Of a stretch of 62,183 nucleotides of DNA, positions 39,867 to 59,784 are shown one piece after another; within the stretch, counting starts at the first letter, position 1; every line of letters starts with the position of its first letter. The translations under genes were made by a program, and so were the position numbers. Source of the stretch: a virus (Duplodnaviria > Caudoviricetes); IMG/VR virus record IMGVR_UViG_3300025141_016207, positions 1 to 62,183 of that record, one strand, 5' to 3'. Under the pieces are notes generated by a model that was not told where the DNA came from, ran no database searches, and saw nothing but the letters and a program-made list of their open reading frames with translations.

Positions 39867-40054
39867 CAATCGCTTTCTTCGTCATCAGCGCCGATTTTAA
39901 ACACGGGAGGATTCGCAACCATTAATTCATCCTGTGATTCGCCATTAATAACGAAATCAAATGCCCTTAAAATGGGAACAATATCAGTTTGCTCATATAA
40001 TGATTTTTGTAGTGCCATCATCAGTGCTCCCATCGCTTGATCAGATAATTTCAT
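39866..40054 (-). CDS. Small hypothetical protein
   Basis: 62 aa, AAGGAG SD, ATGA coupling with the upstream gene. Confidence 0.6.
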   Translation of the reverse strand: MKLSDQAMGALMMALQKSLYEQTDIVPILRAFDFVINGESQDELMVANPPVFKIGADDEESD

Positions 40055-40392
40055 TGTTTCTTCTCCTTAAAGTTAATATTGGGGGCAGTCATCTGCTGCT
40101 CAAAAAACATATCTGAATTGATGTTTTTATCGTCAATAAACAAATCATAATTTGGCTTTCCAAATTTAAGATCATGGTATTTGACACCCCATTTTTTAAA
40201 TTGTTTAGTAGTTGTCTCGGACCAGTCTATGCCCGACCCAGAGCCCCTAGCTGTCCAGTAAATAATTGTATTGCCATCATCATAAAGCTGATTTATTTTT
40301 TTGATTCTATTTGCCATAGGGACCGCCTCTGCATAATTGCGAGATGGGGGTGATTGGCAAATCGTTTCATCAATGTCAACATAAATAACCAT
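40051..40392 (-). CDS. Capless HAD-superfamily phosphatase (capsule-biosynthesis type)
   Basis: YVDIDETI (motif I), YWTARG (motif II), GKP.YDLFIDDK (motifs III/IV); 113 aa. Confidence 0.85.
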   Translation of the reverse strand: MVIYVDIDETICQSPPSRNYAEAVPMANRIKKINQLYDDGNTIIYWTARGSGSGIDWSETTTKQFKKWGVKYHDLKFGKPNYDLFIDDKNINSDMFFEQQMTAPNINFKEKKQ

Positions 40393-40395
40393 GAT

Positions 40396-41319
40396 TTAAT
40401 CCTTGCCTACAACTGAATGATTGGCAAATCTTTCCATCAATTGTTTTAAATCTTCGTTCTCTAGTTCTACATGCAAAATCTTTTTCTCCCAACGCAACTC
40501 GGTCGCAACTGGATCAATTCCCATGATATCATACCTGATTTTTAAATTTAACGTATCGCCCGAAAGAGGGAGAGGACTCTCAACCACCTGTTGCTTAATG
40601 CCCTGATTTACCATGTTTTTAATGATATTGGATTCGTGATCGAATGATCCAGTTCTAGCTCTCTCTAACAACCCTATAATTTCAGATGCTTTTCTATAAC
40701 CCCACTTTACATATTCTTTTTGGAGAAGCTTCTCATCATAAATGCGTTCACCAAGCGACGACATATCTTGAGCCGACCATACATAAATGTGATGCCCAAA
40801 ATCCTTTGCACCGGCAACCAAATTTAAAGATTGCGCCAAACTTTTTCCGCATTTTGCACCATGAATTTCACAATATAACTTATCAATATACCTTAAAGTG
40901 CCATCATTATATAATTTTTGCAACACCTCGTATTCGGCTCCTTCAATATCAAGCTTTAAAATAATTGTGTCACTTTCTAAAAAATTATCCTTTATCCAAG
41001 AACTTAAATCAAAAGATTCTGCCTTTCTTGGATTATGCGCGTATTTGTCTTTTATAACACTAGAACCTTCGTCTGCGTCGTCATACCACGTTATAGTTCC
41101 ATCTTTTACCCACACAGCTTTAGTATCCCATACCGCACTTTTAATATTTTTTTCCAAAACAAGTCTGGACATAATTTTTAAACCAGCTTGTTTAAACATG
41201 CGGCGATCTGAAATCTCAAAACAATAAGCCTCATATTCGCCGCTATCTGCATAGAGACTCGAAAAGGCTTCTAGAGATTCGCCTTTGTGTGCTCCACAGT
41301 CTATAAAAACTTTTTTCAT
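40396..41319 (-). CDS. FkbM-family methyltransferase with C-terminal extension
   Basis: VFIDCGAHKG, ILKLDIEGAEYEVL, CEIH. Confidence 0.85.
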   Translation of the reverse strand: MKKVFIDCGAHKGESLEAFSSLYADSGEYEAYCFEISDRRMFKQAGLKIMSRLVLEKNIKSAVWDTKAVWVKDGTITWYDDADEGSSVIKDKYAHNPRKAESFDLSSWIKDNFLESDTIILKLDIEGAEYEVLQKLYNDGTLRYIDKLYCEIHGAKCGKSLAQSLNLVAGAKDFGHHIYVWSAQDMSSLGERIYDEKLLQKEYVKWGYRKASEIIGLLERARTGSFDHESNIIKNMVNQGIKQQVVESPLPLSGDTLNLKIRYDIMGIDPVATELRWEKKILHVELENEDLKQLMERFANHSVVGKD

Positions 41320-41325
41320 AATCTG

Positions 41326-42012
41326 TTAATCCAACATAAATACTGATAGGATCTCTTCGCCATTAGCGACTTGACCTCTCTTGGTTTTCAGTATCATTTT
41401 ACACTTGAACTCCGGTTCCATTAGCTTCCTCAAAGATTTTTCAGAAAAATAGTGATAATGTCCATCGAATGGTTCCTTACTGTGTAATGTCCGGTTTACT
41501 GGAACTTGTATAATTGCCTTGCCTGTTTTATTAAGCAACTTTAATAATTTATTCTTATAATGTTTTGGGTCGTAAAAATGTTCCAGAACATCAAAAGAAA
41601 TAATAACATCGTATTTAGAATTCTCCGGTATATTTTGCATCGAACATCCAAATACCTTTATACCCTTGTTTTTTGCAGCAGAAGAGAGATTTTCATCTAT
41701 TTCACATGCATGATAATTTTCTAAACCAAATTTTTCTTTAAAAATATCACAAAAATGTCCATACCCTAAGCCGATTTCCAACACCCTATCAGCGGCGCAT
41801 ACATAGTCCCCTATCAAGCTGAGTTTGGTTGCTCCTCTGGCTTTTATGGGCGCGGTTTGAACCGCAGGTGTTATTTTTTGCCTATAAAGATTTGTGTAAT
41901 AATCTTTCAAATCTATTGCGGAATAATTTCTGAAGACATGTTCACATTCATCGCACTTACAGACCTTTTCTCTTATATTTTCAATTGTGTTCTCACAAAT
42001 TATACATTTCAT
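41326..42012 (-). CDS. Class I SAM methyltransferase with N-terminal Zn ribbon
   Basis: CIIC..CDEC, VLEIGLGYG, FDVLEHFYDP, IQVP..GHYHYFS. Confidence 0.85.
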   Translation of the reverse strand: MKCIICENTIENIREKVCKCDECEHVFRNYSAIDLKDYYTNLYRQKITPAVQTAPIKARGATKLSLIGDYVCAADRVLEIGLGYGHFCDIFKEKFGLENYHACEIDENLSSAAKNKGIKVFGCSMQNIPENSKYDVIISFDVLEHFYDPKHYKNKLLKLLNKTGKAIIQVPVNRTLHSKEPFDGHYHYFSEKSLRKLMEPEFKCKMILKTKRGQVANGEEILSVFMLD

Positions 42013-42025
42013 AAAATCAAATTTT

Positions 42026-42895
42026 TTACTCCTTTAATAAAAAATCACACACAGGCTTTTTCCAATCGGGCAACGAATCATAAAAACTTTTTTTAATTTT
42101 AAACGAAATGGATTGTTCTTTGCCATCGGCAAGTTCTGGATGCACCACGAAGTTTATAGTAAACATGAGGCGTGAGCCTTGGCGAACCTTCTGCCCCTTG
42201 TGCCAGCCGTTGGTCCAGCCCATAAGCAAATCTCCTGCTTTCGCAGTGCAGCGTTTTATGCTTTGCTTGCTATAGGCATTTTCTAGTTCAGCATCCATCC
42301 AACGTTGTTTGGCGTCCCACCCGCTAAACATTTTTGCATTACTTCCTTCGACGTAGGTAAAGGGACCAGTATGAATATCTACATCATTTAAATAAGCAAA
42401 AAACTTTATTATCCTTACACTATTAAAATCACGATGAAACAAATTGGTAGTTCTTGAAGGGAGATTGTTGGCATAGCTTTTACGCAAATTGCATGTGCCA
42501 ATTGCCGGTAAACAGCCATAAAACGAAGCCGCCATCTCTATAATTCTGTCGTCAAAGGCAATTTGAGCGGCACCCTCTATATTGTACAGGGGCTGTGCAA
42601 TCATCGAATGTTCTTCATTATGAATCTTTAAAGATTGTCCTGTCTTTATTAAATTCTCCGTGTCTTCACGCATTTTATCGATAAACTCTTTGTCAAAAAA
42701 GTTCTCTATTTTCGTGTAGCCTTTTTGTTTTAAATCATTAACATATGGCTCATATTTTGAACTAGCACTATGGGGATGCTGCGCGGTGCGATCGACATAT
42801 TTTTGATTATAATACTCTACTGCCTCTCTGCCATTTTTTAAAAGCCAATGCCCATAAAAGTTCGCTTGATTCGGTTGTATCCAAGATGTCGTCAT
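42026..42895 (-). CDS. PhyH-like Fe(II)/2-oxoglutarate dioxygenase (type B')
   Basis: LFHRD (HxD), FAYLNDV, GPFTYVEGS, WHKG, distal Arg (SRLM). Confidence 0.8.
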   Translation of the reverse strand: MTTSWIQPNQANFYGHWLLKNGREAVEYYNQKYVDRTAQHPHSASSKYEPYVNDLKQKGYTKIENFFDKEFIDKMREDTENLIKTGQSLKIHNEEHSMIAQPLYNIEGAAQIAFDDRIIEMAASFYGCLPAIGTCNLRKSYANNLPSRTTNLFHRDFNSVRIIKFFAYLNDVDIHTGPFTYVEGSNAKMFSGWDAKQRWMDAELENAYSKQSIKRCTAKAGDLLMGWTNGWHKGQKVRQGSRLMFTINFVVHPELADGKEQSISFKIKKSFYDSLPDWKKPVCDFLLKE

Positions 42896-42903
42896 TAAAT
42901 CTC

Positions 42904-43713
42904 CTAATCTAAATTATAAACTTTAACATTTTTCTTCGGCAAAATCGTGCGAGTGCGGTGATTAAAATAAGAGTCCATTTTTTGTAGGCTTGGGCGTATA
43001 AAAAGAAAAAGACAATCTCTGGGAGCAGTGTGTGATTGGGGAATTGTTGCGCGATGCATGATATTAGGAGTCAACATTCCGTAAGTGCCGGGGGGACCAA
43101 TTAGGCTTTGTTGCCGACCTCCTTTCTTGCAAATTTCATCAATAACCTTTGGTGGGATGCGAGAGCCTTTGTAAAGTTGCTGTCCGATACCCATGTGAGG
43201 CGTATGCCGAGAGGAAGGAACAATCGGTGCATTATTTTTTTCATCCACCATAAACTGAAAACAACCGTTTTCTTCCGTCACCTCATTTAAATAAACCACA
43301 AATTTTAAAAATTCTCTTGGGCAATCATCATAATGCCACAGCCAGGATGCGGCTGGCTTCTCTTTGGTAGGATTGTTGCGATAAGGCATCACAAATTCAA
43401 CTTGTATTCCACAATGAAAAATTTCTCTCTCTACTTGCGGCGCAACATGATTTACAAACGCTTTAAGGCTTTCTATTTCCAAACAATCATTTACATAGCG
43501 AGCAAAGGAAGAACCATTATAGCATCCTAAATTATTATCTAGTCGGTATCTTATGTCTTTTGCCAGTTCCTCTACCAAAGAAAAATATCTTTCGTCTGTG
43601 GCGAGAAAATCGGCATCAATAGACAAATCATACAAAGAATCATATTTATCCCCCGAGGAAGTGACCGGATTGATTTCTAAACATCTTTTATAATGTTCGG
43701 CATAGGTTTTCAT
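42904..43713 (-). CDS. PhyH-like Fe(II)/2-oxoglutarate dioxygenase (type A')
   Basis: WLWHYDD, KFVVYLNEV..NGCF, IMHRAT, PRD; start placed at MKTY (ATGA overlap), although the ORF is open to 43734. Confidence 0.75.
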   Translation of the reverse strand: MKTYAEHYKRCLEINPVTSSGDKYDSLYDLSIDADFLATDERYFSLVEELAKDIRYRLDNNLGCYNGSSFARYVNDCLEIESLKAFVNHVAPQVEREIFHCGIQVEFVMPYRNNPTKEKPAASWLWHYDDCPREFLKFVVYLNEVTEENGCFQFMVDEKNNAPIVPSSRHTPHMGIGQQLYKGSRIPPKVIDEICKKGGRQQSLIGPPGTYGMLTPNIMHRATIPQSHTAPRDCLFLFIRPSLQKMDSYFNHRTRTILPKKNVKVYNLD

Positions 43714-44423
43714 TTTCTCTTCTCCCATACACACAACATTTCTTCGCCTCTAGCCAAAGAGCCCCTATTACCAAAATAAATTTGCAAAGCTTTAAAATCA
43801 CTCTCAAATAGATTAAGTATTGAGTCTTTAGAAAAATAATGAGAGTGACCATCAAAAATCGGGTTTGGGGGCACCATTGTTCGATTTATAGGAACCTGTA
43901 ATATCAAAAACTTATTAACAATTTCTGCCATCTTTTCTTTAAACTTTTGGATATCCAAAACATGCTCTAACACATCCATCCCGATAACCACATCAAACCC
44001 TTGATCAATTTCTAAAACACTTTTATTAATAACCTCAAAGCCCAAATTGGCGCACTTATCGGTCATTTTTGTATCGATATCGGAACACATAATTGTTTTT
44101 ACATAGTCTTGTGCCTTTACCGCAAACAAGCCGTCGCCAGAGCCAATTTCCAATACCTTAAACTCTTCACTTAAAAAATCCTTCGTAGCGTTTAAAAACG
44201 TATCAATATACTTATATCTTTCTTTAGAAGAATACATGGCATACCCCTCTTCTCCCTTAATCCGATACTTTTCTCTATGGTATTCTTCAACATCGCCTTT
44301 AAAATATCTAAAAATGTGATCGCAAAGTTTACACTGATGGGTATCTGATATGAGGTTGTTCTGCCAATAATAATTGGAGTTATAAGACTTTTCGGCGCGG
44401 CAAGCGTGACATCTATCCAACAT
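43710..44423 (-). CDS. Class I SAM methyltransferase with N-terminal Zn ribbon (paralog of 41326-42012)
   Basis: CHAC..CKLC, VLEIGSGDG, MDVLEH, LQVPINRT..FDGHSHYFS. Confidence 0.85.
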   Translation of the reverse strand: MLDRCHACRAEKSYNSNYYWQNNLISDTHQCKLCDHIFRYFKGDVEEYHREKYRIKGEEGYAMYSSKERYKYIDTFLNATKDFLSEEFKVLEIGSGDGLFAVKAQDYVKTIMCSDIDTKMTDKCANLGFEVINKSVLEIDQGFDVVIGMDVLEHVLDIQKFKEKMAEIVNKFLILQVPINRTMVPPNPIFDGHSHYFSKDSILNLFESDFKALQIYFGNRGSLARGEEMLCVWEKRK

Positions 44424-45523
44424 TACGCGGCACCTATTTTTCTCTTGATGGTATCAGGCAACGGGCACAAAGTTCTAGAGACGGTGGCAAGCGTATTGTA
44501 TTTCTTTTCTTCTCCTAAGTTATAAATATTAAATTCATATTTGTGCTTCAAGTGAAAAATGTAATCCCAAAATATTAAATTTTGGCGGGCTTGAAATCTG
44601 TCTCCATGCAAGTTGTACCACTTTGGAACCCGCTTTTTGCTGTTAAAGGCGTGCAGTAATTTACCGTCTTTTTCTACCTTATTCCGACCATCAACCCCAA
44701 CAAAATAAACATCCTTAGCACCACTAAAAATAGCCAGGGCAATCATTCGCACTCCCGTGCCAATAACCGACGAATATCTGGTATACCAATGACAAGAGTT
44801 GGAGGGGTATCTTTCTACAAAGGACTTCACAGGATCTAGTGGAACCTGATCATATAAATAAGTCACGAGGGGGAAAGAAATTATCGGGGCGTCACGCCTC
44901 ATTATATCATTTAATTCTTTATTATCAAGGTCAACCACTGAAGCAAGCGCTGCAAAATCAATTTTTACATCTTGTAATTTGTCATTTTTGTAAAATTCAT
45001 TACAGGTCCATAAATAATCATAATCCACAGCTTGCCAATCCACTTCGTTAGCGGAAGGACCGCCGCACACGATCATTATCTTCTTGCCTGTATATCGATT
45101 AAAATGATTATCAACATTCGAAATGAAAAACTCTCCTGCGTCATCGAAGACAAGTTCCTGTGTCTTGAAGACATCTATTTTGTCAACGATTGTGGAATTA
45201 TATTCTTCCAGTATATTTTCAAAATATTTATTCTGTGCTGGTACAAAAAAATGCTGTTCTTTTTTCGCATTTTTAAGCGTCACATATTGGGCATCACTGA
45301 AAAATTGATTATCCCTGGTGTCGAGCCACACGCTTCTTGGCGGCGGCGCTTCGTCACCACATATATCCAGAACATGCTTATGAACTCTCTTAATGTTAAT
45401 GCTACGGTTGTTGTTAATATACACCGTAGCATTTTCATGAAGTTCTTTATCTATGCCCGACCAGAAAGAACCTTCGTCATAAAGCAGAGTGCAATCATCT
45501 AAATGTGTTCCTAACTCTATCAC
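44423..45523 (-). CDS. Sialyltransferase-fold protein (Cst/GT42- or Maf/DUF115-like nonulosonate transferase)
   Basis: IMIVCGGPSANEVDW..WTCNEFY and GTGVRMIALAIFSGAKDVYFVGVDG resemble recalled Cst-II motifs (IAGNGPSL..RCNQFY; SGVYM..ALGYKEIYLSGID). Confidence 0.65.
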   Translation of the reverse strand: MIELGTHLDDCTLLYDEGSFWSGIDKELHENATVYINNNRSINIKRVHKHVLDICGDEAPPPRSVWLDTRDNQFFSDAQYVTLKNAKKEQHFFVPAQNKYFENILEEYNSTIVDKIDVFKTQELVFDDAGEFFISNVDNHFNRYTGKKIMIVCGGPSANEVDWQAVDYDYLWTCNEFYKNDKLQDVKIDFAALASVVDLDNKELNDIMRRDAPIISFPLVTYLYDQVPLDPVKSFVERYPSNSCHWYTRYSSVIGTGVRMIALAIFSGAKDVYFVGVDGRNKVEKDGKLLHAFNSKKRVPKWYNLHGDRFQARQNLIFWDYIFHLKHKYEFNIYNLGEEKKYNTLATVSRTLCPLPDTIKRKIGAA

Positions 45524-46206
45524 TTGGTAGGCACCCCTTTATACAAAGCTTCACAAAGTTTAAATTGCCATTCATAATCAATATCAAAGACCTCTTCTTC
45601 TTTTACCACAAAAAGCTCTGGCTCGGGAGGCACCTTTGTATCCATCCAACAACCACCTTTAACAATATCAAGCCTGCTAGCATATAAACAATGCGCGGCT
45701 TCGTAAGTTATGTTCATGGTTTTTGTGTTCATTAGTTTTTGGTCTTCAGGCCACGGACTAATCATCTTCCCGGTGGCGTCCCAAAAATATTGCTTTTTGG
45801 CTATTACAGCAAACATGCCATCATCCGAGGAAGAAAGATAACTTCTCATAAAGTTATCAATGGTCTCCGTGGTTAATAGCGGAGTACAAGCACTTATCAA
45901 CACAACATATTTATAATCCAACTTATCGTGCCACTCATAGATATCCGTAATGCTGTTTTCTGCCATAGCAGATTTTTCACTTCTATGAAAAATATTAACG
46001 CCGTGCTTTTCGCCTATCTCGACCAATTCTGGTTCGTAAACCGACAAATAAAAGTTTTCCTTTGGAATGACTGAGGAATTCAAAACATTCACAACCCCTA
46101 TATCTGTCAATGTTGTCCCGGCGAAAGGGCGAGTCATTTTTTTAGGAACACGCTCCGAATTTAAACGAGCTTGTATCACCACACACACATCTTTAATATC
46201 CTTCAC
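45520..46206 (-). CDS. neuA: Acylneuraminate/nonulosonate cytidylyltransferase (CMP-sugar synthetase)
   Basis: VIQARLNSERVPKKM..FAG, CTPLL, FDIDYEWQF; GTG start with GAGG SD. Confidence 0.85.
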   Translation of the reverse strand: MKDIKDVCVVIQARLNSERVPKKMTRPFAGTTLTDIGVVNVLNSSVIPKENFYLSVYEPELVEIGEKHGVNIFHRSEKSAMAENSITDIYEWHDKLDYKYVVLISACTPLLTTETIDNFMRSYLSSSDDGMFAVIAKKQYFWDATGKMISPWPEDQKLMNTKTMNITYEAAHCLYASRLDIVKGGCWMDTKVPPEPELFVVKEEEVFDIDYEWQFKLCEALYKGVPTK

Positions 46207-46218
46207 GCTAATATCCTC

Positions 46219-46280: not shown

Positions 46281-46298
46281 TCCCAAAATATCAATCGT

Positions 46299-49026: not shown

Positions 49027-49395
49027 TTAATCTCCCTTTGTCACACGATAACTATCTTCATCGAAATGCTGAGTGGAAAACTCAAACAACTCTGAATCTT
49101 CAAGGGCGTGCATTTGATGCCTCAAACCAGCGGGAACATAAAAGTTCTGCCCAGGCTCAAGAAGTATTTTATTGGCGAGTTCGGGATTATCCTCGGCGCT
49201 ATATTTAACAATTAATTTGCCGGATTGAAGATAAAATACTTCATCTTTAATTTTGTGGTAATGCCAAGAGCATCGCCTTCCCCCTTCAAAGAAGAGCAGT
49301 TTCCCACAATATTCTGATTTATTAACAATCCACTTTTCATAACCCCATCCCTTTTTCACATATTTCATAGGAATGTGAATTTGTTTATTTACCAT
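49027..49395 (-). CDS. Cupin, mannose-6-phosphate isomerase / sugar isomerase-like
   Basis: VKKGWGYEKW, SWHYHKIKDEVFY (HxHxxxxE), PAGLRH. Confidence 0.8.
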   Translation of the reverse strand: MVNKQIHIPMKYVKKGWGYEKWIVNKSEYCGKLLFFEGGRRCSWHYHKIKDEVFYLQSGKLIVKYSAEDNPELANKILLEPGQNFYVPAGLRHQMHALEDSELFEFSTQHFDEDSYRVTKGD

Positions 49396-52542: not shown

Positions 52543-52559
52543 AAACCCCTCCTTGTTAA

Positions 52560-53573: not shown

Positions 53574-53575
53574 TC

Positions 53576-54400
53576 CTAACCTCTTAGTTTTTTTCGAACC
53601 TGTTTTTCTTGATCTGTGATCTGCTTATAGCCATCCCCAGCGGCAATTTCCAATTCTCTGATCCCTCTGACCAGCTTGATCATGCCTTGTGGCTCAACTG
53701 AACAAAGCTGATCAGTGCCCCACATAGTTCTATCTAACGTTATATGTCTCTCGATTATATTTGCACCCAAGTATACTGCGGCGACTGAAGTTCCCAAACG
53801 AAATTCATGACCACTATAACCAACCTCGCAGTTATAACGTTCTTTTAACGTTTGTATGCATTTCAAATTTAAATCTTCTAATGGTGCTGGATAAGATGAA
53901 TTACAATGCATCATCACAATCTCACAACCCTTAAGCCACTCAACAACTTGATCAATTTCTTGATAAGTGCTCATGCCCGTAGAAAAAATAATCTTTTTTC
54001 CGGTTGCGGCGGTGGCTTTCACCAAAGGTTCGTTGGCGATCATAGCTGATGGGATTTTGATCCAAGGAATATCGTAGCGCAATAAAAACTTAAGGCTGTC
54101 TAAATCCCATGGGGAAGCAGACCATTCAATACCCTTTTCTTTACAATATTTATTTATCTCGTCATACTCGGCTTTTTCAAACTCTACCTTGTATTTGTAA
54201 TCAAGATATGTCATTTGTCCCCATGGGGTTTCTTTCATGACATTCTTTTGATGGTCTGGGACACAAGCGGCAGGATTTCTTTTTTGAAATTTAACTGCAT
54301 CACAGCCAGCGACAGAAGCAATATCGATTAGCTTCTTTGCCGTATGAATATCTCCATTATGATTAATTCCAATTTCAGCTATGATGTATGTCTTTCGCAT
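53576..54400 (-). CDS. neuB: N-acetylneuraminate (nonulosonate) synthase, short form
   Basis: IIAEIGINHNGD, VKFQKR, ETPWGQMTYLDY, STGMS, MHCNSSYP, GYSGHE, IERHITLDRTMWGTDQ. Confidence 0.92.
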   Translation of the reverse strand: MRKTYIIAEIGINHNGDIHTAKKLIDIASVAGCDAVKFQKRNPAACVPDHQKNVMKETPWGQMTYLDYKYKVEFEKAEYDEINKYCKEKGIEWSASPWDLDSLKFLLRYDIPWIKIPSAMIANEPLVKATAATGKKIIFSTGMSTYQEIDQVVEWLKGCEIVMMHCNSSYPAPLEDLNLKCIQTLKERYNCEVGYSGHEFRLGTSVAAVYLGANIIERHITLDRTMWGTDQLCSVEPQGMIKLVRGIRELEIAAGDGYKQITDQEKQVRKKLRG

Positions 54401-55192
54401 TTATTTTTTTACCAAAACTGCAATGTATTTTTTGTATGGGCGATGCAATTCAAGGCTTTTCGGTTTTAAAATTTTCCATTCTCCCTGTCCAGCCAGTTTA
54501 ACAATCTCAGTAAATACTGTCTCGGTACACTGAAAACAATCAGCTTGAGTATCCTTGTTATTCTTCACGTTTAAAGACGTATCCAACGACATTGGTGTTT
54601 TGTTGGGGCGATCATCATACCCTCTTTGAATGTAAATTCTGCCTCCCGGTTTAATACAACTCATCCATGCCTTTAAACATGTGATGGGATCATACGAGTG
54701 GTCCAACGAGTTACTAAAGATGAAACACACATTCCCTAGCCATTCTTCTTTTATGTTGTGAAAATCCCATTCAATAGTATCGGAAAACTCAGTTGCAGTA
54801 TAGGAGATTTCTGTTCCAATAACTTCAACCCCCAAAGCCTTTCGAAAACGGGATTGTTCGTGACCTCGACGTGTGCCGTGACACAATCCAAATTTCAAAT
54901 CAGGAATATTTTTTTTGATATCTTGGGAAATTTTTGCAATACGTTTAGCGTCTGGACCGGGGAAATCTATTTTTTTTAAATTGATGTAAGTCTGTGATTC
55001 TACATACGCTTCATAATCAAAAGTGCCATCCGCAAATTCATATCTAAAAAGCTGGGCTGTTGATTCGGAGTGATGTTTAAAAGGTTTAAAATCTATACCT
55101 GCTTTGTTATATTTATCTAAGATTTTGATATAATTTTTATTATCAGCGGTGGCGGCTTTCAAGATAGCTGATTTTTGTTTAATTTTCTTCAT
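54401..55192 (-). CDS. Putative class I SAM-dependent methyltransferase
   Basis: GLCHGTRRG, VIGTEIS, WDFH, FSNSLDHSYDP..W..CIKPGG. Confidence 0.6.
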   Translation of the reverse strand: MKKIKQKSAILKAATADNKNYIKILDKYNKAGIDFKPFKHHSESTAQLFRYEFADGTFDYEAYVESQTYINLKKIDFPGPDAKRIAKISQDIKKNIPDLKFGLCHGTRRGHEQSRFRKALGVEVIGTEISYTATEFSDTIEWDFHNIKEEWLGNVCFIFSNSLDHSYDPITCLKAWMSCIKPGGRIYIQRGYDDRPNKTPMSLDTSLNVKNNKDTQADCFQCTETVFTEIVKLAGQGEWKILKPKSLELHRPYKKYIAVLVKK

Positions 55193-57225
55193 AAAGACAC
55201 TCTTGGAATCCCTTCAAATAGGGCGCTTTCCGAAGACGCCAATTCCAACTGAACGCCACGGTTTAACAACCAATTATAAATTTCTTCTGTTGCGTCCACA
55301 TGGGCTTTAACCTCCCACGGTAGGACATCAGCCCTATTAAAAAGTTTATCAGTCTCTCCATAAAAGTGTTTATGATCGCTCTGCTTCTTGGGGTTATCTT
55401 TTGATAAATCATAACCGATCGCGACTATTTTAGAGACGCCAAGATGTACAGCCATGTGAAGAACCGTTTCTAACACAATGCCAGGACCGCAGGGGCGGTC
55501 GATGGAATTTTCCAGACAATACTTTTCAAACTCCTTTGTAAACACAAGAAACTTATTCGCTATTTCAGTTCTAATGGGAATTTTAAAAAACAGATCTACT
55601 TCTTGTTGCGGAGCAAAGCGCTTTTCCAAATCATAATTGCTACTAACCACACTAATTGGATCAGACTCATCATAAGGATAATGTACGTCTGGTCGAGGGT
55701 GAGGCAAGTTTGAACAATTAAAAAAATGAAAATCGGCAATTTCTGGACAATAATCATAAGCCTGCTTAACAGAAAGCACCAATTTATCAGCCAACAGACT
55801 CTTTAAATGAGAAACGGAGTTTTTCTTTAAAGAAGGTCCGCAACTGAGTAAATAACACGTCTCTCCTTTATACGCATCTTTCAATAAATCAACTTTTTGT
55901 TGTAAATTGTTTACTAATTGAAGTTCCCTTTTTAGTTCCTGTGTTTTGTGTTTAATTTTGTTTGTAGGGGTGTTTAAGTCAGAGCAGGATTCAAACTTTA
56001 AAGAATCTTTCAAAATCTTGCTGATGTTAGTGCTAGAACAATGTGCTGACAGCTTTTTATGATTTAATTTTGTTACCTTGTCGAACGCCGCAATGTTTTG
56101 TTTCTTTACATTATATGCCGACCTCATTTTTGACATCAAATCTAGAATATTCGGTTCATAATAGTTCATATCACAAAGGTAATTTTGGACATTATAACAT
56201 GGAGATTTATAGCACTCAAAAAGAAACTCGTTATCATGTAAATAATCTATATGACCACCCTTGTTGGGCACAATAACCGGCATTTTACGCGCAACGGCGT
56301 CGGCTATAGTTAGACCAAAACCTTCTCCCCGCGTGGGGAGAATAAAACAATCTGAAACATCATAAAGGTGACTAATCTCCGAAGGAGAGATAATCTCGTT
56401 GATAAGAATAACAGGAGCGGTCGGGTGATTGTTAGAATCATCAATATATACCTGTGATTTTATAGTATTAATGTGATTAGCAATAATCTTATATTGTTCT
56501 TCGGGCGTAGCAGTTTGAACGCTCATATTATCAATATAGGTTTTTATAATTAAAGCAACATCTTGCCGATCTTTAAATTCTGAAAAATATGCTCTTAAAA
56601 GCACCTCAAACGCTTTTCGGTGATTCCATTGGGATATCGCTAAAAATGTGAATTTATCTTCTAAATTCGGAAGAGGGAATGGATCACTTTTAAATTTTCT
56701 AACATCAATGGGAATATAATGAGGCAACAATTTAGTTTTCACATTGGCTTTGTTGTATGTTTCCTCATTCCAACGACAGGGCACAAAACAAAATTCGGTT
56801 TTCAATCGAGACAATACCTTGACCCAAAAATCTGGAATTTTGTCAGCTTCCCAAGTTGAAATATTAATATTTTCGTTGGAGGATGACAGCAGCCTTTTCG
56901 CTCTTATAAAAACCTTTCTCATGTGAATGGGCAAATTATTTGCCGACTCAATCCATGATATTACTGCGGGGGGAATGTGCCATATTAAAGTGTATTTTTC
57001 TTGAAGTAGTTGATTTAGGTGTGCTTCCCCTTTTATATGATGTTTATCAATCAATTTTTGATCAGAATCTTTTAACCGATGAGGTTTTTCAAAGGGCAAA
57101 TTAAAAATGTGAAATTTAAACCCCACCTCAGAAGCCAATTGATCCAAAACATGCAAATACCCACGGGCAGCAGATGCATAACCGGAGGCGTCAGTAAACT
57201 GCGCTAAATAAATTAATCTCTTCAT
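55189..57225 (-). CDS. Fusion of a GT4 glycosyltransferase and a Maf/DUF115 (sialyltransferase-fold) domain
   Basis: N-terminal part: SGYASAARG, WEAD, RKAFEVLL, PTRGEGFGLTIADA; C-terminal part: YKGETCYLLSCGPSL..HMAVHLGVSKIVAIGYDL..HFY. Confidence 0.8.
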   Translation of the reverse strand: MKRLIYLAQFTDASGYASAARGYLHVLDQLASEVGFKFHIFNLPFEKPHRLKDSDQKLIDKHHIKGEAHLNQLLQEKYTLIWHIPPAVISWIESANNLPIHMRKVFIRAKRLLSSSNENINISTWEADKIPDFWVKVLSRLKTEFCFVPCRWNEETYNKANVKTKLLPHYIPIDVRKFKSDPFPLPNLEDKFTFLAISQWNHRKAFEVLLRAYFSEFKDRQDVALIIKTYIDNMSVQTATPEEQYKIIANHINTIKSQVYIDDSNNHPTAPVILINEIISPSEISHLYDVSDCFILPTRGEGFGLTIADAVARKMPVIVPNKGGHIDYLHDNEFLFECYKSPCYNVQNYLCDMNYYEPNILDLMSKMRSAYNVKKQNIAAFDKVTKLNHKKLSAHCSSTNISKILKDSLKFESCSDLNTPTNKIKHKTQELKRELQLVNNLQQKVDLLKDAYKGETCYLLSCGPSLKKNSVSHLKSLLADKLVLSVKQAYDYCPEIADFHFFNCSNLPHPRPDVHYPYDESDPISVVSSNYDLEKRFAPQQEVDLFFKIPIRTEIANKFLVFTKEFEKYCLENSIDRPCGPGIVLETVLHMAVHLGVSKIVAIGYDLSKDNPKKQSDHKHFYGETDKLFNRADVLPWEVKAHVDATEEIYNWLLNRGVQLELASSESALFEGIPRVSL

Positions 57226-57229
57226 TTAT

Positions 57230-58471
57230 CTACAAAACCATTACTCTTGGTTCGTTGGCAATATCCTGCGCGGGGGTGATAACATTGATAAACTTTTCAT
57301 ATTGATTTTCCTCGGAATGAGTTTTTAAAATATGTTTTTGAAGTCGTTTGGCAGTTGCTTTAAACCTTCCATAATCTTTTTGGAACTCCCTTAGCTTCAT
57401 TTTAAAGGATCCCTCTTTGGGGAATGCCCACATTGACTCCTTCTGAAGGACTCCCTTCCAAATCGCCTCTTTTTGAATGGGCTGAAGATCATAATCAACT
57501 TTGCAAAAATGTGGTTTTATTTTTGTCAAACCTTTTTTGCTCTTTTTAGCTGCATAAAGGTAGTCTACCTGACCAGACCAATCGGTGGTAATTACTGGTA
57601 GCCCATGATACGCCGCTTCAAAGATCGGCAAGCCAAACCCCTCACCGTGAGAAAGGTTAATCAATCCCTTTATCTTCGAATTGGTATAAATTGAATTCAT
57701 TTGTTTTTCAGTGAGATATCCATGTAACAAGTACACCTTGCACAGCCTATCCTTATAGCCTGCCAACATCGACTTGAATGCCTTTAGAGTTAAATCACGG
57801 TCAATTTGACAATTTTTTGCTAAATTGGTTTTTACAACTAAACCAACATTCTTATCAATATTTTCTTCGACAAACCATCTTATAGTATTATGAAGATTTT
57901 TTCGTGGTCCCCATTGCGAAATAGTTAAAAAGTTGAAATCTGTACTTAAATTTAAATCTATACTATCAACTTGTGTTCTGTGTGAACGAACGGGAAAATT
58001 TACAACTTCAATTGGCTTTCCAATTTTAATCACTTGACCGGTTTGTTGGTTGGTATAAAAACTGCTCTCAAAAACATTCTTTGAGTGGTTGGAAGGAACG
58101 ATCAGTTTATCTACTATTTGATTGGATTTTAAAATCCATTCGGGAGCGACCTTGGTACTTTCAATGCCAGCAGTATATCCAATATCCCGCAGTGCCATCT
58201 TTTCAAATTCATTGGGGATGGTAATCTGAATAGAGATATCAAACCTTCCTTGTTGTTTGATATATTGCATGGTTTTTGAAAGAAGTTCGTCATACCATGC
58301 GCGTTCTTCATTGTCTTCGATTATATGATTGGTTTTACCCCACCCAATATTAATTAAAAATATATCAAAAAGGTCTTGACGACTTTTAAGCGCTCTTAGA
58401 GCAAAACGAGTTTGTTCGCCATAGCCGCTTTGTGATAATGCCGGTCCCTTAACAATTACCTTTTGTTTCAT
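57230..58471 (-). CDS. GT4-family glycosyltransferase
   Basis: SQSGYGEQTR, QWGPRKN, SHGEGFGLPIFEAAYHGLPVITTDWSG. Confidence 0.9.
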   Translation of the reverse strand: MKQKVIVKGPALSQSGYGEQTRFALRALKSRQDLFDIFLINIGWGKTNHIIEDNEERAWYDELLSKTMQYIKQQGRFDISIQITIPNEFEKMALRDIGYTAGIESTKVAPEWILKSNQIVDKLIVPSNHSKNVFESSFYTNQQTGQVIKIGKPIEVVNFPVRSHRTQVDSIDLNLSTDFNFLTISQWGPRKNLHNTIRWFVEENIDKNVGLVVKTNLAKNCQIDRDLTLKAFKSMLAGYKDRLCKVYLLHGYLTEKQMNSIYTNSKIKGLINLSHGEGFGLPIFEAAYHGLPVITTDWSGQVDYLYAAKKSKKGLTKIKPHFCKVDYDLQPIQKEAIWKGVLQKESMWAFPKEGSFKMKLREFQKDYGRFKATAKRLQKHILKTHSEENQYEKFINVITPAQDIANEPRVMVL

Positions 58472-59784
58472 AGTTCAAATATTCCCCAAGATTTATAATT
58501 CTTTCTCGTATCCCACGCACCATTTTCTTCTACCACTTCATCAACAAATTCAACCCAAGCAGCATTAAAAACTTCAAAACCATAATTTTTCTTCACATGC
58601 TCTCTGCCTTGTTGACCTATTTGTTGTCTTTTTTCAGAAGACATCTTAAACATTTTTAACAATGCATTAACGACATCATCTTCATTAAGTCTTTCTTCGC
58701 GAATAAAAGGAATGTCTTGTGAGCCAATAATCGCTCGCGAAGCAGGTTCGATTCCAATGCCGAACCACTTCTCACCATCTGTGACCTGTTCCTGAAGACC
58801 ACCCGTCATAGAAACAATAATAGGAGTGCCGCACGATAATGCCTCAAGAGTTGCCAAGCCGAACCCTTCTGCGTCAGAAATGTTTATTACAACATCGGCA
58901 GCGTTATACAGCAACGCCAACGCATGTGGTGGAACTTTTTCGCGTGAAAATTTGACTTGCCCGTCTGTAAGCCCAAGTTCTGTAATTATTGCATCCAAGT
59001 CCTGACCATTGGGATCTTTAGTATCTGTATGCATAACGAGGAGAGCTTTATCATGTCCAACTTTATCTAGAAACTTTTTAAACCAAAATATTAAACTGCC
59101 GGATTGTTTTCGTCGTGCATTTCTATTGTTCCACACAACAATAAACTTGTCCACATCTTCCTTAAAATTATCTTGCTTAAACTGTGTAATTACATTGGGA
59201 GGGAGTGGCTTAAAAAGTTCCTCGGGAACAGCGTGAGGAATGCGGAGGTGTTTTACTTCAGGAGCAACCTTTGTTACAATATCCGCAGTTACTTTACTAA
59301 TGCTGGCAATGGCATCATTTGATTGATAAAACTTTTTATTAAAAGTTGGATAAGGATAATTATCCCAAACATGATAATATATCAAGGGACAATGATATCT
59401 AATTTCTTCTTCTATCTCCCACAACCAGTGCCAGAAACGAGGATCCGTCATAATCCAAACTGCGGCTGGGCGCTCTGTGCGAACTGCTTGTCTGATTAAA
59501 TCTGGCGTTCCATACCCATCGATTGGAATAACAAGTAAATCATCCTCATACTCTTGTGTTTTTACGGGAGTATAATCTTTATGTTTAACGGCACCGCCGA
59601 GACAGATAAATTTATATCTTCCCGTATTAAGGAGGGCCTCAATAAAATATTTTGTTTGTGTGCCAACTCCGCTGGGTGAAAAGGGATGATCAGAAATTAC
59701 AAGAATTTTTTTCTTGGCGATGGCTGGAGTATCTTTTTGTGTTTCCGAAAAATCCTTGGAAAGGGGTAATAATTCAATTGTCAT
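58468..59784 (-). CDS. GT4-family glycosyltransferase
   Basis: ISDHP..PSGVGTQ, NRNARRKQ, SDAEGFGLATLEALSCGTPII..TGGLQEQV. Confidence 0.9.
   Translation of the reverse strand: MTIELLPLSKDFSETQKDTPAIAKKKILVISDHPFSPSGVGTQTKYFIEALLNTGRYKFICLGGAVKHKDYTPVKTQEYEDDLLVIPIDGYGTPDLIRQAVRTERPAAVWIMTDPRFWHWLWEIEEEIRYHCPLIYYHVWDNYPYPTFNKKFYQSNDAIASISKVTADIVTKVAPEVKHLRIPHAVPEELFKPLPPNVITQFKQDNFKEDVDKFIVVWNNRNARRKQSGSLIFWFKKFLDKVGHDKALLVMHTDTKDPNGQDLDAIITELGLTDGQVKFSREKVPPHALALLYNAADVVINISDAEGFGLATLEALSCGTPIIVSMTGGLQEQVTDGEKWFGIGIEPASRAIIGSQDIPFIREERLNEDDVVNALLKMFKMSSEKRQQIGQQGREHVKKNYGFEVFNAAWVEFVDEVVEENGAWDTRKNYKSWGIFEL

Follow-up and report, generated by a model that had tools for sequence, protein, structure and literature searches.

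In Prymnesium and Bacteroides, a Kdn-9-phosphate synthase is established that takes mannose-6-phosphate as substrate, with a phosphatase acting next (PMC6200933), and a Kdn polymer, often methylated, is described in the walls of Streptomyces (PMC11481543). Phage-encoded glycosylation of the virion has a precedent in mycobacteriophages (Freeman 2023, cited in PMC12619734), and the glycosyltransferase clusters of marine myophages have been read as favoring a change of the host surface (PMC7029224). A similar reading was given to viral neuABC (10.1101/655167), the one mention of viral neuA/B/C that we found. Here, we analyze a phage locus which, judged from its gene families, very probably makes and transfers a CMP-activated nonulosonate.

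Gene content of the locus

The island comprises 22 ORFs at positions 40051 to 59784 of the window (the whole 62,183-nucleotide stretch of DNA that was analyzed), all on the minus strand and tightly packed, with 92 nt (46206-46299) and 84 nt (48053-48138) as the widest intergenic gaps (Table 1). The ORF listing thereby bears out the contiguous, co-oriented gene block described in a first-pass annotation of the sequence. The flanks agree with it as well: PIN-PhoH and PD-(D/E)XK nuclease genes lie on one side (Pfam), and a Zn-ribbon gene (Pfam, below cut-off) and baseplate wedge proteins on the other, with the baseplate and giant tail genes immediately downstream of the island. A "sigma" gene also listed among the flanking genes was not recovered, as 38632-39327 has no match in Pfam or PHROG. 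There is no enrichment of the T4 late-promoter word, with 9 matches where 5.0 +/- 1.9 would be expected.

Two NeuB synthases, one CMP-sugar synthetase, three GT42/Maf/MptE-fold domains, three GT4 domains, and one small HAD phosphatase are accompanied by tailoring genes for two SDRs, one TIM barrel, one cupin, five methyltransferases, and four Fe/2OG dioxygenases. Most of the earlier inventory (both NeuBs, NeuA, the HAD, the GT4 domains, SDRs, and cupin) holds, and other parts are qualified. The proposed epimerase is a xylose-isomerase-like TIM barrel by AP_endonuc_2, and its epimerase matches, to L-ribulose-5-phosphate 3-epimerase in NCBIfam, are weak. Four methyltransferases are recognized by Pfam (two FkbM, two class I); the fifth (54401-55192), with no match in Pfam, NCBIfam, or PDB, has look-alikes only in the ESM Atlas (feature score 0.98, TM 0.73 to Methyltransf_11 clusters). 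In run X7, one contig is without 48187-48981, inside an FkbM gene. Among the dioxygenases, 42026 matches PhyH above the cut-off and 46299 below it, at 40% identity to 42026 and with H-x-D...H...R invariant in their family (A2). The other pair was assigned by profile: the family of 42904 (A3) has invariant H134, D136, H227, and R239, its profile matches leucine hydroxylase (5nch, E 5.6e-5) and EctD (E 1.4e-4), and the 42904/47247 family aligns with that of the PhyH-like pair (hhalign 99.2%, E 7e-20).

Table 1. Genes of the island, all on the minus strand, with presence of homologues counted over 82 related loci.
Position	Strand	Assignment	Evidence	Loci (of 82)
40051..40392	-	Small HAD-type phosphatase, core gene, putative nonulosonate-9-phosphate phosphatase	PDB 9iqw E 1.1e-11	
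40396..41319	-	FkbM-family methyltransferase	Methyltransf_21 E 9e-6; fkbM_fam 50.3 bits vs 37.7	
41326..42012	-	Class I SAM methyltransferase	Methyltransf_23 E 3.4e-17	
42026..42895	-	PhyH-type Fe/2OG dioxygenase	PhyH E 9.3e-7, 29.8 bits vs 22	
42904..43734	-	Fe/2OG dioxygenase-like protein	Profile only; no Pfam match	
43710..44423	-	Class I SAM methyltransferase	Methyltransf_23 E 1.3e-8	
44423..45523	-	GT42-like transferase, paralogue of 52560	CST-I E 4.9e-5, below cut-off	
45520..46206	-	NeuA, CMP-ulosonate synthetase, core gene, single copy in window	CTP_transf_3 E 1.7e-10, 41.5 bits vs cut-off 22.6	72
46299..47237	-	PhyH-type Fe/2OG dioxygenase	PhyH E 5.9e-4, below cut-off	
47247..48053	-	Fe/2OG dioxygenase-like protein, paralogue of 42904	50% identity to 42904	
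48138..49025	-	FkbM-family methyltransferase	Methyltransf_21 E 2.5e-13; fkbM_fam 80 bits vs 37.7	
49027..49395	-	Cupin, accessory cassette	Cupin_2 E 4.9e-9	
49389..50225	-	SDR_a, short-chain dehydrogenase, accessory cassette	adh_short_C2 E 8.6e-43	6
50197..50964	-	Xylose-isomerase-like TIM barrel (sugar/sugar-phosphate epimerase/isomerase-like), accessory cassette	AP_endonuc_2 E 2.8e-9, 37.5 bits vs 31.1	3
50961..51689	-	SDR_b, short-chain dehydrogenase, accessory cassette	adh_short E 3.7e-51	5
51682..52563	-	NeuB2, second SAF-less synthase, rare accessory cassette	NeuB E 4.6e-72	
52560..53573	-	GT42/Maf/MptE-fold transferase, extra N-terminal domain, putative CMP-nonulosonate transferase		
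53576..54400	-	NeuB1, SAF-less nonulosonate (9-phosphate?) synthase, family core gene	NeuB PF03102 E 2.4e-78	
54401..55192	-	Probable class I SAM methyltransferase (lead only)	ESM Atlas	4
55189..57225	-	Fusion of N-terminal GT4 and C-terminal GT42/Maf/MptE-fold domain	Glycos_transf_1 E 1.2e-10 (residues 280-339); MptE-like E 1.3e-7 (residues 438-490), below cut-off	30
57230..58471	-	GT4_b glycosyltransferase, conserved core gene	Glycos_transf_1 E 1.6e-7	56
58468..59784	-	GT4_c glycosyltransferase, conserved core gene	Glycos_transf_1 E 2e-16, 60.5 bits	56 (median identity 56%)

Synthases and the core sugar

Both NeuBs, 48% identical to each other, match the Neisseria enzyme in the alignment at its catalytic and metal-binding residues (in NeuB2, the matches to E25, K53, Q55, H215, E234, H236, and D247), stop short of the SAF/antifreeze-like domain, and stay under the equivalog cut-offs that NCBIfam sets for NeuB and PseI. 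For NeuB1, positions 1-274 of 329 align with TIGR03569 (276.6 bits, cut-off 399.65), and in PDB it is matched best by a short NeuB, 6ncs. Its orthologues occur in 80 IMG/VR loci at 67-81% identity, and phylogeny groups the phage NeuB1 sequences in a single clade (SH-like support 98) apart from cellular ones; the NeuB2-type clade has five rows in the tree. The nearest cellular relatives of NeuB1 (52-57% identity) are mostly from Streptomyces, one of them preceded by a gene for an 807-aa cytidylyltransferase-HAD fusion.

Over its full length, NeuA aligns to PseF with 36 bits, well short of that cut-off, and tblastn with it gave no matches in 50,697 deposited phage records. The HAD begins with D-x-D-x-T, its match 9iqw is annotated as a "capsule biosynthesis protein," and it matches BT0820/EcbF weakly. 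All 15 loci in which the downstream boundary was captured keep it, and in 11 of 80 it is no more than 60 nt away from NeuB1; in a 484-kb phage, the HAD and a NeuB1-like gene are about 4 kb apart or less, and in a Kyanoviridae-labeled marine virus they adjoin. Pfam detects no aminotransferase, acetyltransferase, or NeuC/UDP-GlcNAc 2-epimerase family among the 22 island proteins.

Since the NeuBs are without SAF domains, amino-sugar genes are missing, and the HAD linkage and one Streptomyces neighborhood point the same way, we give an even chance to the core sugar being a non-aminated, Kdn-like acid made via a 9-phosphate; it is probably not Neu5Ac, Pse, or Leg. The sialic-acid-like nonulosonate proposed earlier thus stands as regards the nonulosonate chain, and the identity of the sugar is revised toward Kdn on account of the short NeuBs and absent amino-sugar enzymes. 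The suggested chain of NeuB, HAD, and NeuA fits such a 9-phosphate route.

The virus-encoded succession of synthase, cytidylyltransferase, GT42/Maf-fold transferase, and tailoring enzymes is supported, and its core steps can be proposed from families and gene linkage. NeuB1 would combine a hexose phosphate of the host, for which mannose-6-phosphate is the likeliest candidate, with phosphoenolpyruvate into a Kdn-like nonulosonate 9-phosphate, from which the HAD would take off the phosphate. NeuA would then form the CMP-sugar for transfer by the three GT42/Maf-fold domains, and the three GT4 domains may add ordinary sugars from host nucleotide sugars. A second, unusual nonulosonate would come from NeuB2 together with the two SDRs, the TIM-barrel isomerase/epimerase, and the cupin, and either the individual sugars or the completed glycan would be modified by the five methyltransferases and four Fe/2OG hydroxylases. 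The glycan would be attached to a phage-particle protein in the cytoplasm, either ahead of assembly or while it proceeds. As a whole, this phage-owned cytoplasmic glycosylation locus with a virion-protein acceptor is our best explanation, held at slightly less than even confidence.

Transferases and the acceptor

All three GT42-like domains miss the Pfam gathering score (23.4 against 25, 24.7 against 34.6, and 32 against 34.6). Structure comparison places the GPS-motif proteins in the GT42/Maf/MptE fold, as had been predicted: of three claimed sialyltransferase-fold domains, the fold is confirmed for 52560-53573 and the C terminus of 55189-57225, while 44423-45523 is assigned by paralogy to 52560 (BLASTP E 8e-30) and weak matches to Cst-II chains spanning the GPS and G-x-D motifs (E 2.5e-4). 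The AF2 model of 52560-53573 (pLDDT 90.2) matches Cst-I (VIA Z 12.4; 200 residues at rmsd 3.8) and Cst-II (Z 12.3), and its family profile (A1) matches Cst-II, Cst-I, and the Pasteurella sialyltransferase (E 3e-8 to 2e-6). The model of fusion residues 400-678 (279 aa, pLDDT 86.7) retrieves HPPK 8sd5, Cst-II 1ro8, and Maf 5mu5 in Foldseek (E ~3e-5). No equivalent of the Cst-II catalytic histidine was identified in the island transferases. The archaeal pterin pyrophosphokinase MptE (HPPK) fits the fold of 52560-53573 equally well (Z 12.4).

We tentatively regard a virion protein as the most likely acceptor, because no membrane-spanning segment occurs in any of the 22 proteins, the transferases carry extra N-terminal domains or a GT4 fusion, and baseplate and tail genes adjoin. 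The first-pass annotation favored cytoplasmic protein glycosylation on account of a missing flippase, Wzy polymerase, and initiating transferase; these are indeed missing from the island, but the argument is weak, given that the best matches are lipooligosaccharide (LOS) sialyltransferases. Cst-I, Cst-II, and the Pasteurella enzyme act on lipid A-core acceptors at the inner membrane face, where flippase, Wzy, and initiating transferase are not needed. Their absence is therefore not decisive, as GT42 enzymes sialylate LOS without them.

The same pathway could instead serve a host envelope glycoconjugate (LOS/LPS core, a lipid-linked glycan for general protein O-glycosylation, or capsule), exported by host MsbA/Lpt or a host flippase and re-coating the infected cell, for example against superinfection by competing phages. 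We consider this possible, if somewhat doubtful. The best transferase matches in both structure and profile are LOS enzymes, and the resemblance of 52560-53573 to these (Z 12.2-12.4) exceeds that to the flagellin glycosyltransferase Maf (Z 9.7), which points, if anywhere, toward a lipid-linked acceptor. Soluble or peripheral GT4 and GT42 enzymes are enough for LOS-type assembly, and hypervariable tailoring is the expected outcome of a receptor arms race. However, the family looks lytic and T4-like, and re-coating an outer membrane within one infection would be slow; classic seroconversion is a temperate-phage trait. The N-terminal domains and GT4-GT42 fusion are not as in Cst-I and Cst-II, and neither the island nor the scanned variable regions of two relatives contain a lipid-carrier or export gene.

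Other products and origins

A soluble or unanticipated product with a role in host takeover or defense evasion appears unlikely; it could be a free modified ulosonic acid or oligosaccharide, or else a glycan carried by a cytoplasmic host protein or a non-structural protein of the phage. In favor of such a product, the 22 proteins are all soluble, the abundance of methyltransferases and hydroxylases recalls natural-product tailoring, and the three GT4 domains have hits to "GT4 in conflict systems" in Pfam (E 2.3e-10 to 1.4e-4), but their ordinary Glycos_transf_1 matches are stronger. The presence of six transferase domains implies that an oligosaccharide is assembled on an acceptor, which counts against a soluble product, and we know of no soluble-product or conflict-type system that uses CMP-nonulosonate.

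Phage sets of methyltransferase, dioxygenase, and glycosyltransferase are described as hypermodifying DNA (bioRxiv 10.1101/2023.12.21.572611). There are phages in which hydroxymethylated pyrimidines are glycosylated, and the methyltransferases and dioxygenases here might likewise prepare a base for the glycosyltransferases. This is very improbable, as the methyltransferases belong to the FkbM and small-molecule class I types rather than to the DNA cytosine methylases, and the dioxygenases are PhyH-type, with the hydroxylase relatives GriE and EctD, rather than TET/JBP. None of five long relatives (two 100% complete) has a thymidylate-synthase-family gene, where the control matched in 10 genomes; Tet_JBP gave no match in the five, in a search whose control also matched nowhere. 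To our knowledge, NeuB/NeuA chemistry has no role on DNA.

The island is viral and not a chimera. All 80 contigs examined among 228 IMG/VR relatives share the frame PhoH-nuclease-GT4-GT4-...-HAD-Zn-ribbon, one of them, a complete genome of 203,859 bp, has terminal repeats and a capsid gene of the T4 type, and all five long relatives carry Gp23; the carriers, uncultured T4-like phages from the sea, make up a large family. The public run X1 shows an even word depth (~34) over 39900-59242, and contigs bridge the junctions at 39.9-40.1 kb and 59.78-59.79 kb, so that the host chimera envisaged as a refutation of the first-pass reading was not found. Glycan loci are typical cellular islands and the GC content of this one (0.36-0.39) is a little lower than elsewhere in the contig (0.38-0.44), but with no composition step, three further marine runs containing it at 95-100% likeness, and a shared frame and separate NeuB1 clade across independent viral contigs, misassembled host DNA or a single, recent acquisition of a locus from a host is extremely improbable.

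Comparison with known systems

Across the family, NeuB1, NeuA, a GT42-like gene, the HAD, and the GT4s form a conserved core around a hypervariable interior. Additional NeuBs fall into at least four clades other than that of NeuB1, and the variable genes of relatives include a dehydratase, reductase, NeuB with SAF, GNAT, PIG-L, and formyltransferase or, alternatively, a GT2, second cytidylyltransferase, sulfotransferase-like protein, and GT8. The core may thus have been passed on vertically while tailoring and second-sugar cassettes were exchanged, which would give each phage its own acidic glycan. In this variation of tailoring genes, the phages resemble bacterial surface-sugar loci.

Viral origin and relatives of the island

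The first-pass annotation had read the island as phage-encoded and had named a host chimera as the danger to that reading. The island proved to be viral: the same frame recurs in relatives, word depth is even, both junctions are bridged, and GC content shows no step across the window. The record itself comprises 62,183 bases, is classed as linear, and is estimated to be 34% complete. Public marine metagenome runs contain the window's own sequence, and contigs of four runs were placed on 39900-59899. The likely source run has an even word depth of 33-40 across 39900-59242, with a single contig spanning the left junction and overlapping contigs, with zero differing letters, spanning the right; three further runs contain pieces covering 28-29 of the 30 bins, with a depth of 1-5. 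Over 59243-59899, where contigs fork at 59337-59379 and 59658-59667, the depth climbs to 145 from a level of about 34; the 5' part of the outermost glycosyltransferase gene, GT4_c, seems to be common, in nearly identical form, to several co-occurring relatives. Lying at the edge of the variable slot, this part may serve as an anchor for recombination.

A scan of IMG/VR with the synthase NeuB1 found a relative encoded on 228 contigs. The best 80 of the 228 (67-81% identity) were taken with up to 10 kb on each side and, together with stretches of two GenBank phages, were compared with the window proteins by tblastn, making 82 loci. Homologues were counted at a coverage of at least 50%, and the counts are lower bounds because many loci end at contig ends: NeuA 72, the GT42-like queries 71 and 73, GT4_b 56, GT4_c 56, PD-(D/E)XK 52, HAD 48, GT4-MptE 30, and the SDR/TIM/SDR genes 3 to 6. 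The common frame reads PhoH, a small ORF, PD-(D/E)XK, GT4_c, GT4_b, in some cases GT4-MptE, NeuB1, a variable stretch, HAD, a Zn-ribbon protein, and homologues of the ORFs at 38632, 38355, and 36091.

A T4-type major capsid gene (PF07068) is present in all five long relatives, in which Terminase_6C gave no match. One of the five, G001, has a length of 203,859 bp, direct repeats at its termini, and a completeness rating of 100%. The capsid proteins most similar to that of G001 are those of a 484-kb uncultured phage, Microcystis phage Mel-JY01 (49%), Flavobacterium phage 'immuto' (45%), and Rhodothermus phage RM378 (43%); the family is thus a distant branch of the T4-like phages. Against 50,697 deposited phage records, neither Megablast of the island or the 20-40 kb region nor tblastn of NeuA gave a match, and a NeuB1-like gene occurs in three of the records only.

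Gene content

All long ORFs of the window lie on the minus strand, and exactly 22 of them, tightly packed, occupy 40051-59784. ORFs are named here by their start coordinates.

Genes of the island in order of transcription, with assignments from family searches
Feature	Position	Strand	Remark
GT4 (GT4_c)	58468-59784	-	first in transcription order
GT4 (GT4_b)	57230-58471	-	second in transcription order
678-aa GT4 with C-terminal MptE-like stretch (GT4-MptE)	55189	-
263-aa protein without family assignment	54401	-
NeuB (NeuB1)	53576-54400	-
MptE-like protein	52560	-
NeuB (NeuB2)	51682-52563	-
SDR, xylose-isomerase-like TIM barrel, SDR, cupin (in that order)		-	directly after NeuB2 in transcription
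FkbM methyltransferase	48138-49025	-	after the cupin
Protein without family assignment	47247	-
PhyH	46299	-
CTP_transf_3 cytidylyltransferase (NeuA)	45520-46206	-
CST-I-like protein	44423	-
Class I methyltransferase	between 44423 and 42904	-
Protein without family assignment	42904	-
PhyH	42026	-
Class I methyltransferase, then FkbM methyltransferase	between 42026 and 40051	-
113-aa HAD-like protein (HAD)	40051-40392	-	last in transcription order

The earlier tally of domains, which had included five methyltransferases and four Fe/2OG dioxygenases, is right overall, with one methyltransferase and two dioxygenases known from profile or look-alike evidence only. The sigma factor that it had placed in the flank is not recovered, the protein at 38632-39327 having no Pfam or PHROG match. 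The flanks encode PIN-PhoH, a PD-(D/E)XK nuclease, baseplate wedge proteins, an SbcC-like nuclease, and a primase, and a PHROG search of 20 flanking proteins gave matches for 5 only. A tRNA scan of the window returned none. The T4 late-promoter word TATAAATA has 9 matches against 5.0 +/- 1.9 expected; the matches are intragenic, and the word does not inform on expression timing.

Several neighboring features were observed besides. PhoH (60898-62121) is fused to an N-terminal PIN domain; among deposited phages it is most similar to proteins of jumbo phages of Bacillus and Arthrobacter, with 31-39% identity. The region 10327-36089 contains very large ORFs (2956, 1569, 1288, and 1242 aa) beside gp6- and gp25-like baseplate wedge genes; none of these ORFs has a PHROG match at E 1e-5, and the 1569-aa ORF is strongly hydrophobic around residue 1472. 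A 106-aa protein encoded immediately downstream of the island (39290-39610) has a strongly hydrophobic N-terminal segment, with a Kyte-Doolittle value of 2.88 over 19 residues. No other membrane-type segment lies near the locus, and a homologue of this 106-aa protein is present in 2 of the 82 loci.

Synthases, phosphatase, and the predicted sugar

Both NeuB proteins are full NeuB TIM barrels above the PF03102 cut-off (242.8 and 263.4 bits against 22.1). In a printed alignment with the Neisseria enzyme 2wqp, NeuB2 matches all of E25, K53, Q55, H215, E234, H236, and D247 (Neisseria numbering), which we take to be the metal- and PEP-binding residues, and in NeuB1 the stretches K-F-Q, G-Y-S-G-H, and E-R-H were read in alignments to 6ncs and 8h2c. 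Both stay under the equivalog cut-offs for N-acetylneuraminate and pseudaminate synthases (TIGR03569, 260.9 and 276.6 bits against 399.65; TIGR03586, 187.7 and 202.4 against 340.25). They are 274 and 293 aa long, their alignments end at model position 272-274 of 329, family searches found no SAF domain in either, and the nearest solved relative of both is the short NeuB 6ncs (290 aa). In the Neisseria enzyme, the SAF, or antifreeze-like, domain provides the arginine that grips the N-acetyl (N-acyl) group. Family searches of the 22 island proteins found no aminotransferase, N-acetyltransferase, or UDP-GlcNAc 2-epimerase (NeuC).

NeuA scores 41.5 bits for CTP_transf_3 against a cut-off of 22.6 and misses the PseF and KdsB equivalog cut-offs. 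HAD starts with D-x-D-x-T and matches a solved 'capsule biosynthesis protein' (E 1.1e-11). It is genetically tied to the synthase, being present in all 15 loci whose downstream boundary is captured, being separated from NeuB1 by no more than 60 nt in 11 of the 80 loci, and standing adjacent to or near a NeuB1-like gene in two GenBank phages. One of these (LR756508.1, L083) is a huge uncultured phage of 484 kb with a SAF-less NeuB1-like gene at 50% identity and a small HAD nearby; the other (MH319754.1, L084) is a Kyanoviridae-labelled single-virus marine genome with a SAF-less NeuB1-like gene at 44% identity and a small HAD adjacent. The synthase-phosphatase pair is therefore not limited to one phage family.

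The closest cellular homologues of NeuB1 (52-57% identity) are mostly from Streptomyces, with others from Chloroflexota, Planctomycetota, Myxococcota, and elsewhere. In the single annotated Streptomyces locus, the homologue directly follows an 807-aa CTP_transf_3 plus HAD protein, with a GT2 nearby; we do not equate this locus with SCO4873-4882, the cluster cited for the Streptomyces Kdn wall polymer, or teichulosonic acid (PMC13011467, in part). Streptomyces wall Kdn is described as often methylated (PMC11481543, in part). For Prymnesium and Bacteroides, the established pathway runs from a Kdn-9-P synthase, acting on Man-6-P and PEP, through a phosphatase to a CMP-Kdn synthetase (PMC6200933, in part).

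The gene arrangement of a Kdn-9-phosphate pathway, a synthase linked to a HAD and a cytidylyltransferase without amino-sugar enzymes, is found in the island. Because the synthases lack SAF, amino-sugar enzymes are absent, the HAD is linked, the Streptomyces neighborhood is similar, and Kdn pathways have been published, we infer from gene content, linkage, and relatives a Kdn-like route that has about an even chance of being correct. NeuB1 would make a Kdn-like 9-phosphate from PEP and a host hexose-6-phosphate, HAD would convert this to the free acid, and NeuA would turn the free acid into the CMP-sugar. A different substrate can be conceived for NeuB2, which is grouped with the SDR, TIM barrel, SDR, and cupin genes in a five-gene block that recurs in two other loci (L038 and L041). 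As the TIM barrel has weak matches to sugar-phosphate epimerases, NeuB2 would probably use a sugar phosphate remodelled by the phage.

Putative transferases with the GT42/Maf fold

The earlier proposal that the proteins with a G-P-S motif take the GT42/Maf fold, the fold common to Cst-I/Cst-II sialyltransferases, Maf flagellin transferases, and the MptE pyrophosphokinase, agrees with the predicted structures. The AF2 model of 52560 (pLDDT 90.2) matches Cst-I (Z 12.4, 200 residues aligned, rmsd 3.8), Cst-II (Z 12.2-12.3), archaeal MptE pyrophosphokinase (Z 12.4), Maf (Z 9.7), and animal sialyltransferases (Z about 9). A model of the last 279 residues of 55189 (pLDDT 86.7) has the same set of structural matches, and Foldseek gave both models a probability of 1.00 for a GT42-type fold, a variant of GT-A. 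For the 55189 C terminus, hhalign as a single sequence against the family profile returned a probability of 7%; the fold search later decided.

The TRANSFERASES 44423 and 52560 form a paralogous pair (E 8e-30). The profile A1, built from 41 members of their family, matches only GT42 sialyltransferases among PDB entries (E 3e-8 to 2e-6; Cst-II E 3e-8), and the G-P-S, C-N-x-F, and G-x-D motifs align between the two groups. The modelled fold alone would suit either a transferase or a kinase; the sequence profile and the neighboring genes point to transfer of a CMP-nonulosonate as the predicted function. For CST-I (PF06002), 44423 reaches 23.4 bits and misses the gathering cut-off of 25, and no match was found for 52560 or 55189, which score 24.7 and 32.0 bits for the MptE-like family PF01973 (DUF115) against a cut-off of 34.6. 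An MptE-like copy in L040, the island of G001, lies above this cut-off at 53.6 bits. Since all three window proteins miss the Pfam cut-offs, we name them GT42/Maf-fold proteins and members of neither family.

These proteins have an extra N-terminal part, of about 100-140 residues or a whole GT4, that is absent from Cst-I/Cst-II. H264, the only near-invariant histidine after the G-D motif, aligns with Cst-II Tyr162 in the HMM alignment. In this sequence-based alignment, no counterpart of the Cst-II catalytic base His188 was found. Against 5.8 billion proteins, the A1 profile has 70 matches, all to unnamed metagenome proteins that give no clue to an acceptor.

Tailoring enzymes

The two unassigned proteins 42904 and 47247 are 50% identical to each other, and their family profile (A3) aligns with that of the PhyH-like pair 42026 and 46299 (A2) at an hhalign probability of 99.2% (E 7e-20). 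An invariant H-x-D...H facial triad with a 2OG-binding arginine is present in both families (H134, D136, H227, and R239 in A3; H154, D156, H232, and R242 in A2), and the A3 profile matches a leucine hydroxylase and an ectoine hydroxylase in the PDB. The 263-aa protein 54401 resembles class I methyltransferases (ESM Atlas features 0.98, structure TM 0.73) and is kept as a lead to this class because the likeness comes from ESM Atlas features and structure only. PDB sequence searches with 42904 alone and with 54401 alone gave only chance-level rows.

Variation in the slot

Within 10 kb on either side, 35 loci have one NeuB gene, 42 have two, and 3 have three, while free-standing GT42-like genes number zero in 5 loci, one in 56, two in 16, and three in 3. 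A FastTree phylogeny of 86 rows sampled every second viral locus, to which six chosen loci were added, and every fifth of the cellular loci; seven duplicates and hits of less than 80% coverage were removed. A single clade of 39 rows, with an SH-like support of 98, contains all NeuB1 orthologues and is separate from the 16 cellular rows; the NeuB2-type clade has 5 rows, and the remaining extra NeuBs fall into three further viral clades. As the cellular rows are the best matches to NeuB1, the tree is silent on a donor.

The variable stretch can differ in kind. By Pfam, that of L007 encodes a Polysacc_synt_2 dehydratase, an RmlD-like reductase, a 357-aa NeuB with SAF, a GNAT, a PIG-L deacetylase, and a formyltransferase, and this cassette is of the diamino-nonulosonate type. 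That of L040 encodes a GT2, a second cytidylyltransferase, the MptE-like copy above cut-off, a methyltransferase, and RuBisCO-like, sulfotransferase-like, and GT8 proteins. The last three stand in this order at L040:17153-20173, and the first of them resembles the RuBisCO large chain (PF00016, E 2.9e-33).

Variation is also seen for the window's own phage, tentatively and at a depth below 5. Identical loose ends at 41322 and 47636, in two independent marine runs, suggest a replaced cassette; one contig skips 48187-48981, whereby most of the FkbM gene 48138-49025 is gone; and the GT42-like 44423 shows a 45-nt in-frame skip at 45387-45433. The slot behaves like a bacterial O-antigen or flagellin-glycosylation island.

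Acceptor of the sugar

A protein of the phage particle is a plausible acceptor, held with somewhat less than even confidence. All 22 island proteins are soluble, with no hydrophobic segment of the membrane-spanning type, the transferases carry extra domains or fusions, the locus adjoins baseplate and giant tail genes, and the family looks lytic. Mycobacteriophages also offer a precedent for phage-encoded virion glycosylation (Freeman et al. 2023, cited in PMC12619734). The first-pass annotation had favored protein glycosylation on other grounds, namely that flippase, Wzy polymerase, and initiating transferase are missing, and the 22 proteins indeed include no Pfam family of a flippase, polymerase, chain-length regulator, or initiating polyprenol-phosphate transferase. 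LOS-type assembly is not known to require a flippase, polymerase, or initiating transferase, which removes this main argument. A host envelope glycoconjugate is only slightly less likely as the acceptor, as the nearest enzymes are LOS sialyltransferases and published readings take such genes as modifiers of the host surface (PMC7029224; 10.1101/655167; both in part).

Other acceptors are improbable. Glycosyl-hypermodification of DNA is unlikely, as the thymidylate-synthase family PF00303 is found in none of the five long relatives while a positive control gave matches. For Tet_JBP (PF12851), neither the five relatives nor the control of the search gave a match.

In four of the five long relatives, the capsid protein aligns with the Gp23 model as two segments separated by about 150-180 additional residues. 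In the capsid protein of G001 (G001:C1:120664-122253, L165), this insertion has a Ser+Thr fraction of 0.20-0.30, compared with 0.10-0.17 for the other parts. This enrichment is too unspecific for the insertion to be called an acceptor.

Returning to the phage particle, it could be speculated, with some doubt, that this phage family coats its virions with a self-made, strain-specific, methylated, and hydroxylated acidic glycan built from Kdn-type and other nonulosonic acids.

Significance and comparison with known systems

On cell surfaces, nonulosonic acids are the classic sugars of 'self' and of receptors. A bacterial virus that makes, activates, tailors, and transfers its own nonulosonate would bring a new class of viral surface chemistry or a means of re-coating the host. 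As the core synthase is present in at least 228 IMG/VR contigs and the window sequence itself in marine metagenomes from many studies, any influence on adsorption, grazing, the stickiness of particles, superinfection, or defence could be of importance in the ocean. If virions are coated, this would be the first 'sialylated' bacteriophage particle made wholly by viral enzymes. In abundant, globally distributed marine T4-like phages, the glycan would then be the viral equivalent of the bacterial O-antigen, varied by the exchange of cassettes in a fixed genomic slot. The fixed frame with swapped cassettes also gives a natural enzyme library: synthases without SAF, GT42-like transferases whose acceptor domains are new, and methyltransferases and hydroxylases for ulosonates. 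The core hypothesis, that NeuB1, HAD, and NeuA yield a CMP-Kdn-like sugar, is directly testable with three small proteins.

Virus-encoded glycosylation and bacterial nonulosonate pathways are both already known. In the accessible literature we found no account of a conserved phage nonulosonate glycosylation slot or island, of SAF-less synthases with a HAD partner, or of phage GT42-fold transferases; such genes might still appear in the gene tables that accompany PMC7029224, 10.1101/655167, and PMC12619734. The sole related mention found is of neuA, neuB, and neuC in one freshwater viral genome, LBVG_26 of Lake Biwa, a metagenome-assembled phage genome like ours, where one sentence reads them as host LPS or capsule modification (10.1101/655167, in part). 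The LBVG_26 cluster differs in having neuC, an aminotransferase, and an acyltransferase, and is therefore of the N-acyl or diamino type; the passage concerned describes no transferases, family-wide conservation, or cassette variation. Giant viruses of eukaryotes similarly encode both sugar-nucleotide synthesis and transferases, but with eukaryotic hosts and other sugars (PMC4691112, in part).

The island transferases resemble Cst-I/Cst-II and Maf (DUF115/MptE-like) in predicted fold (Z 12.2-12.4 and 9.7, respectively) and in the three shared motifs, but differ in their 12-19% identity, scores below Pfam cut-offs, and extra N-terminal domains or GT4 fusion. The Tyr162 position of Cst-II is occupied by a near-invariant histidine in the island family.

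The mycobacteriophages known for virion glycosylation are not known to make a nonulosonate. Like the island, they carry phage glycosyltransferase genes beside structural genes and soluble cytoplasmic enzymes, but they use host nucleotide sugars, whereas the island virus also encodes sugar synthesis, activation, and tailoring.

The Kdn pathway of B. thetaiotaomicron, Prymnesium parvum, and the Streptomyces teichulosonic-acid cluster shares with the island a NeuB-family synthase, a HAD phosphatase, and a CTP_transf_3 protein without amino-sugar enzymes. The island is distinct in being virus-encoded, with two synthases and a substrate predicted from genes alone, and its phosphatase, of the capsule-phosphatase type, stands alone as a 113-aa protein instead of forming part of a cytidylyltransferase-HAD fusion. 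Where a GT2 lies beside the Streptomyces gene, the island has transferases of the predicted GT42/Maf fold.
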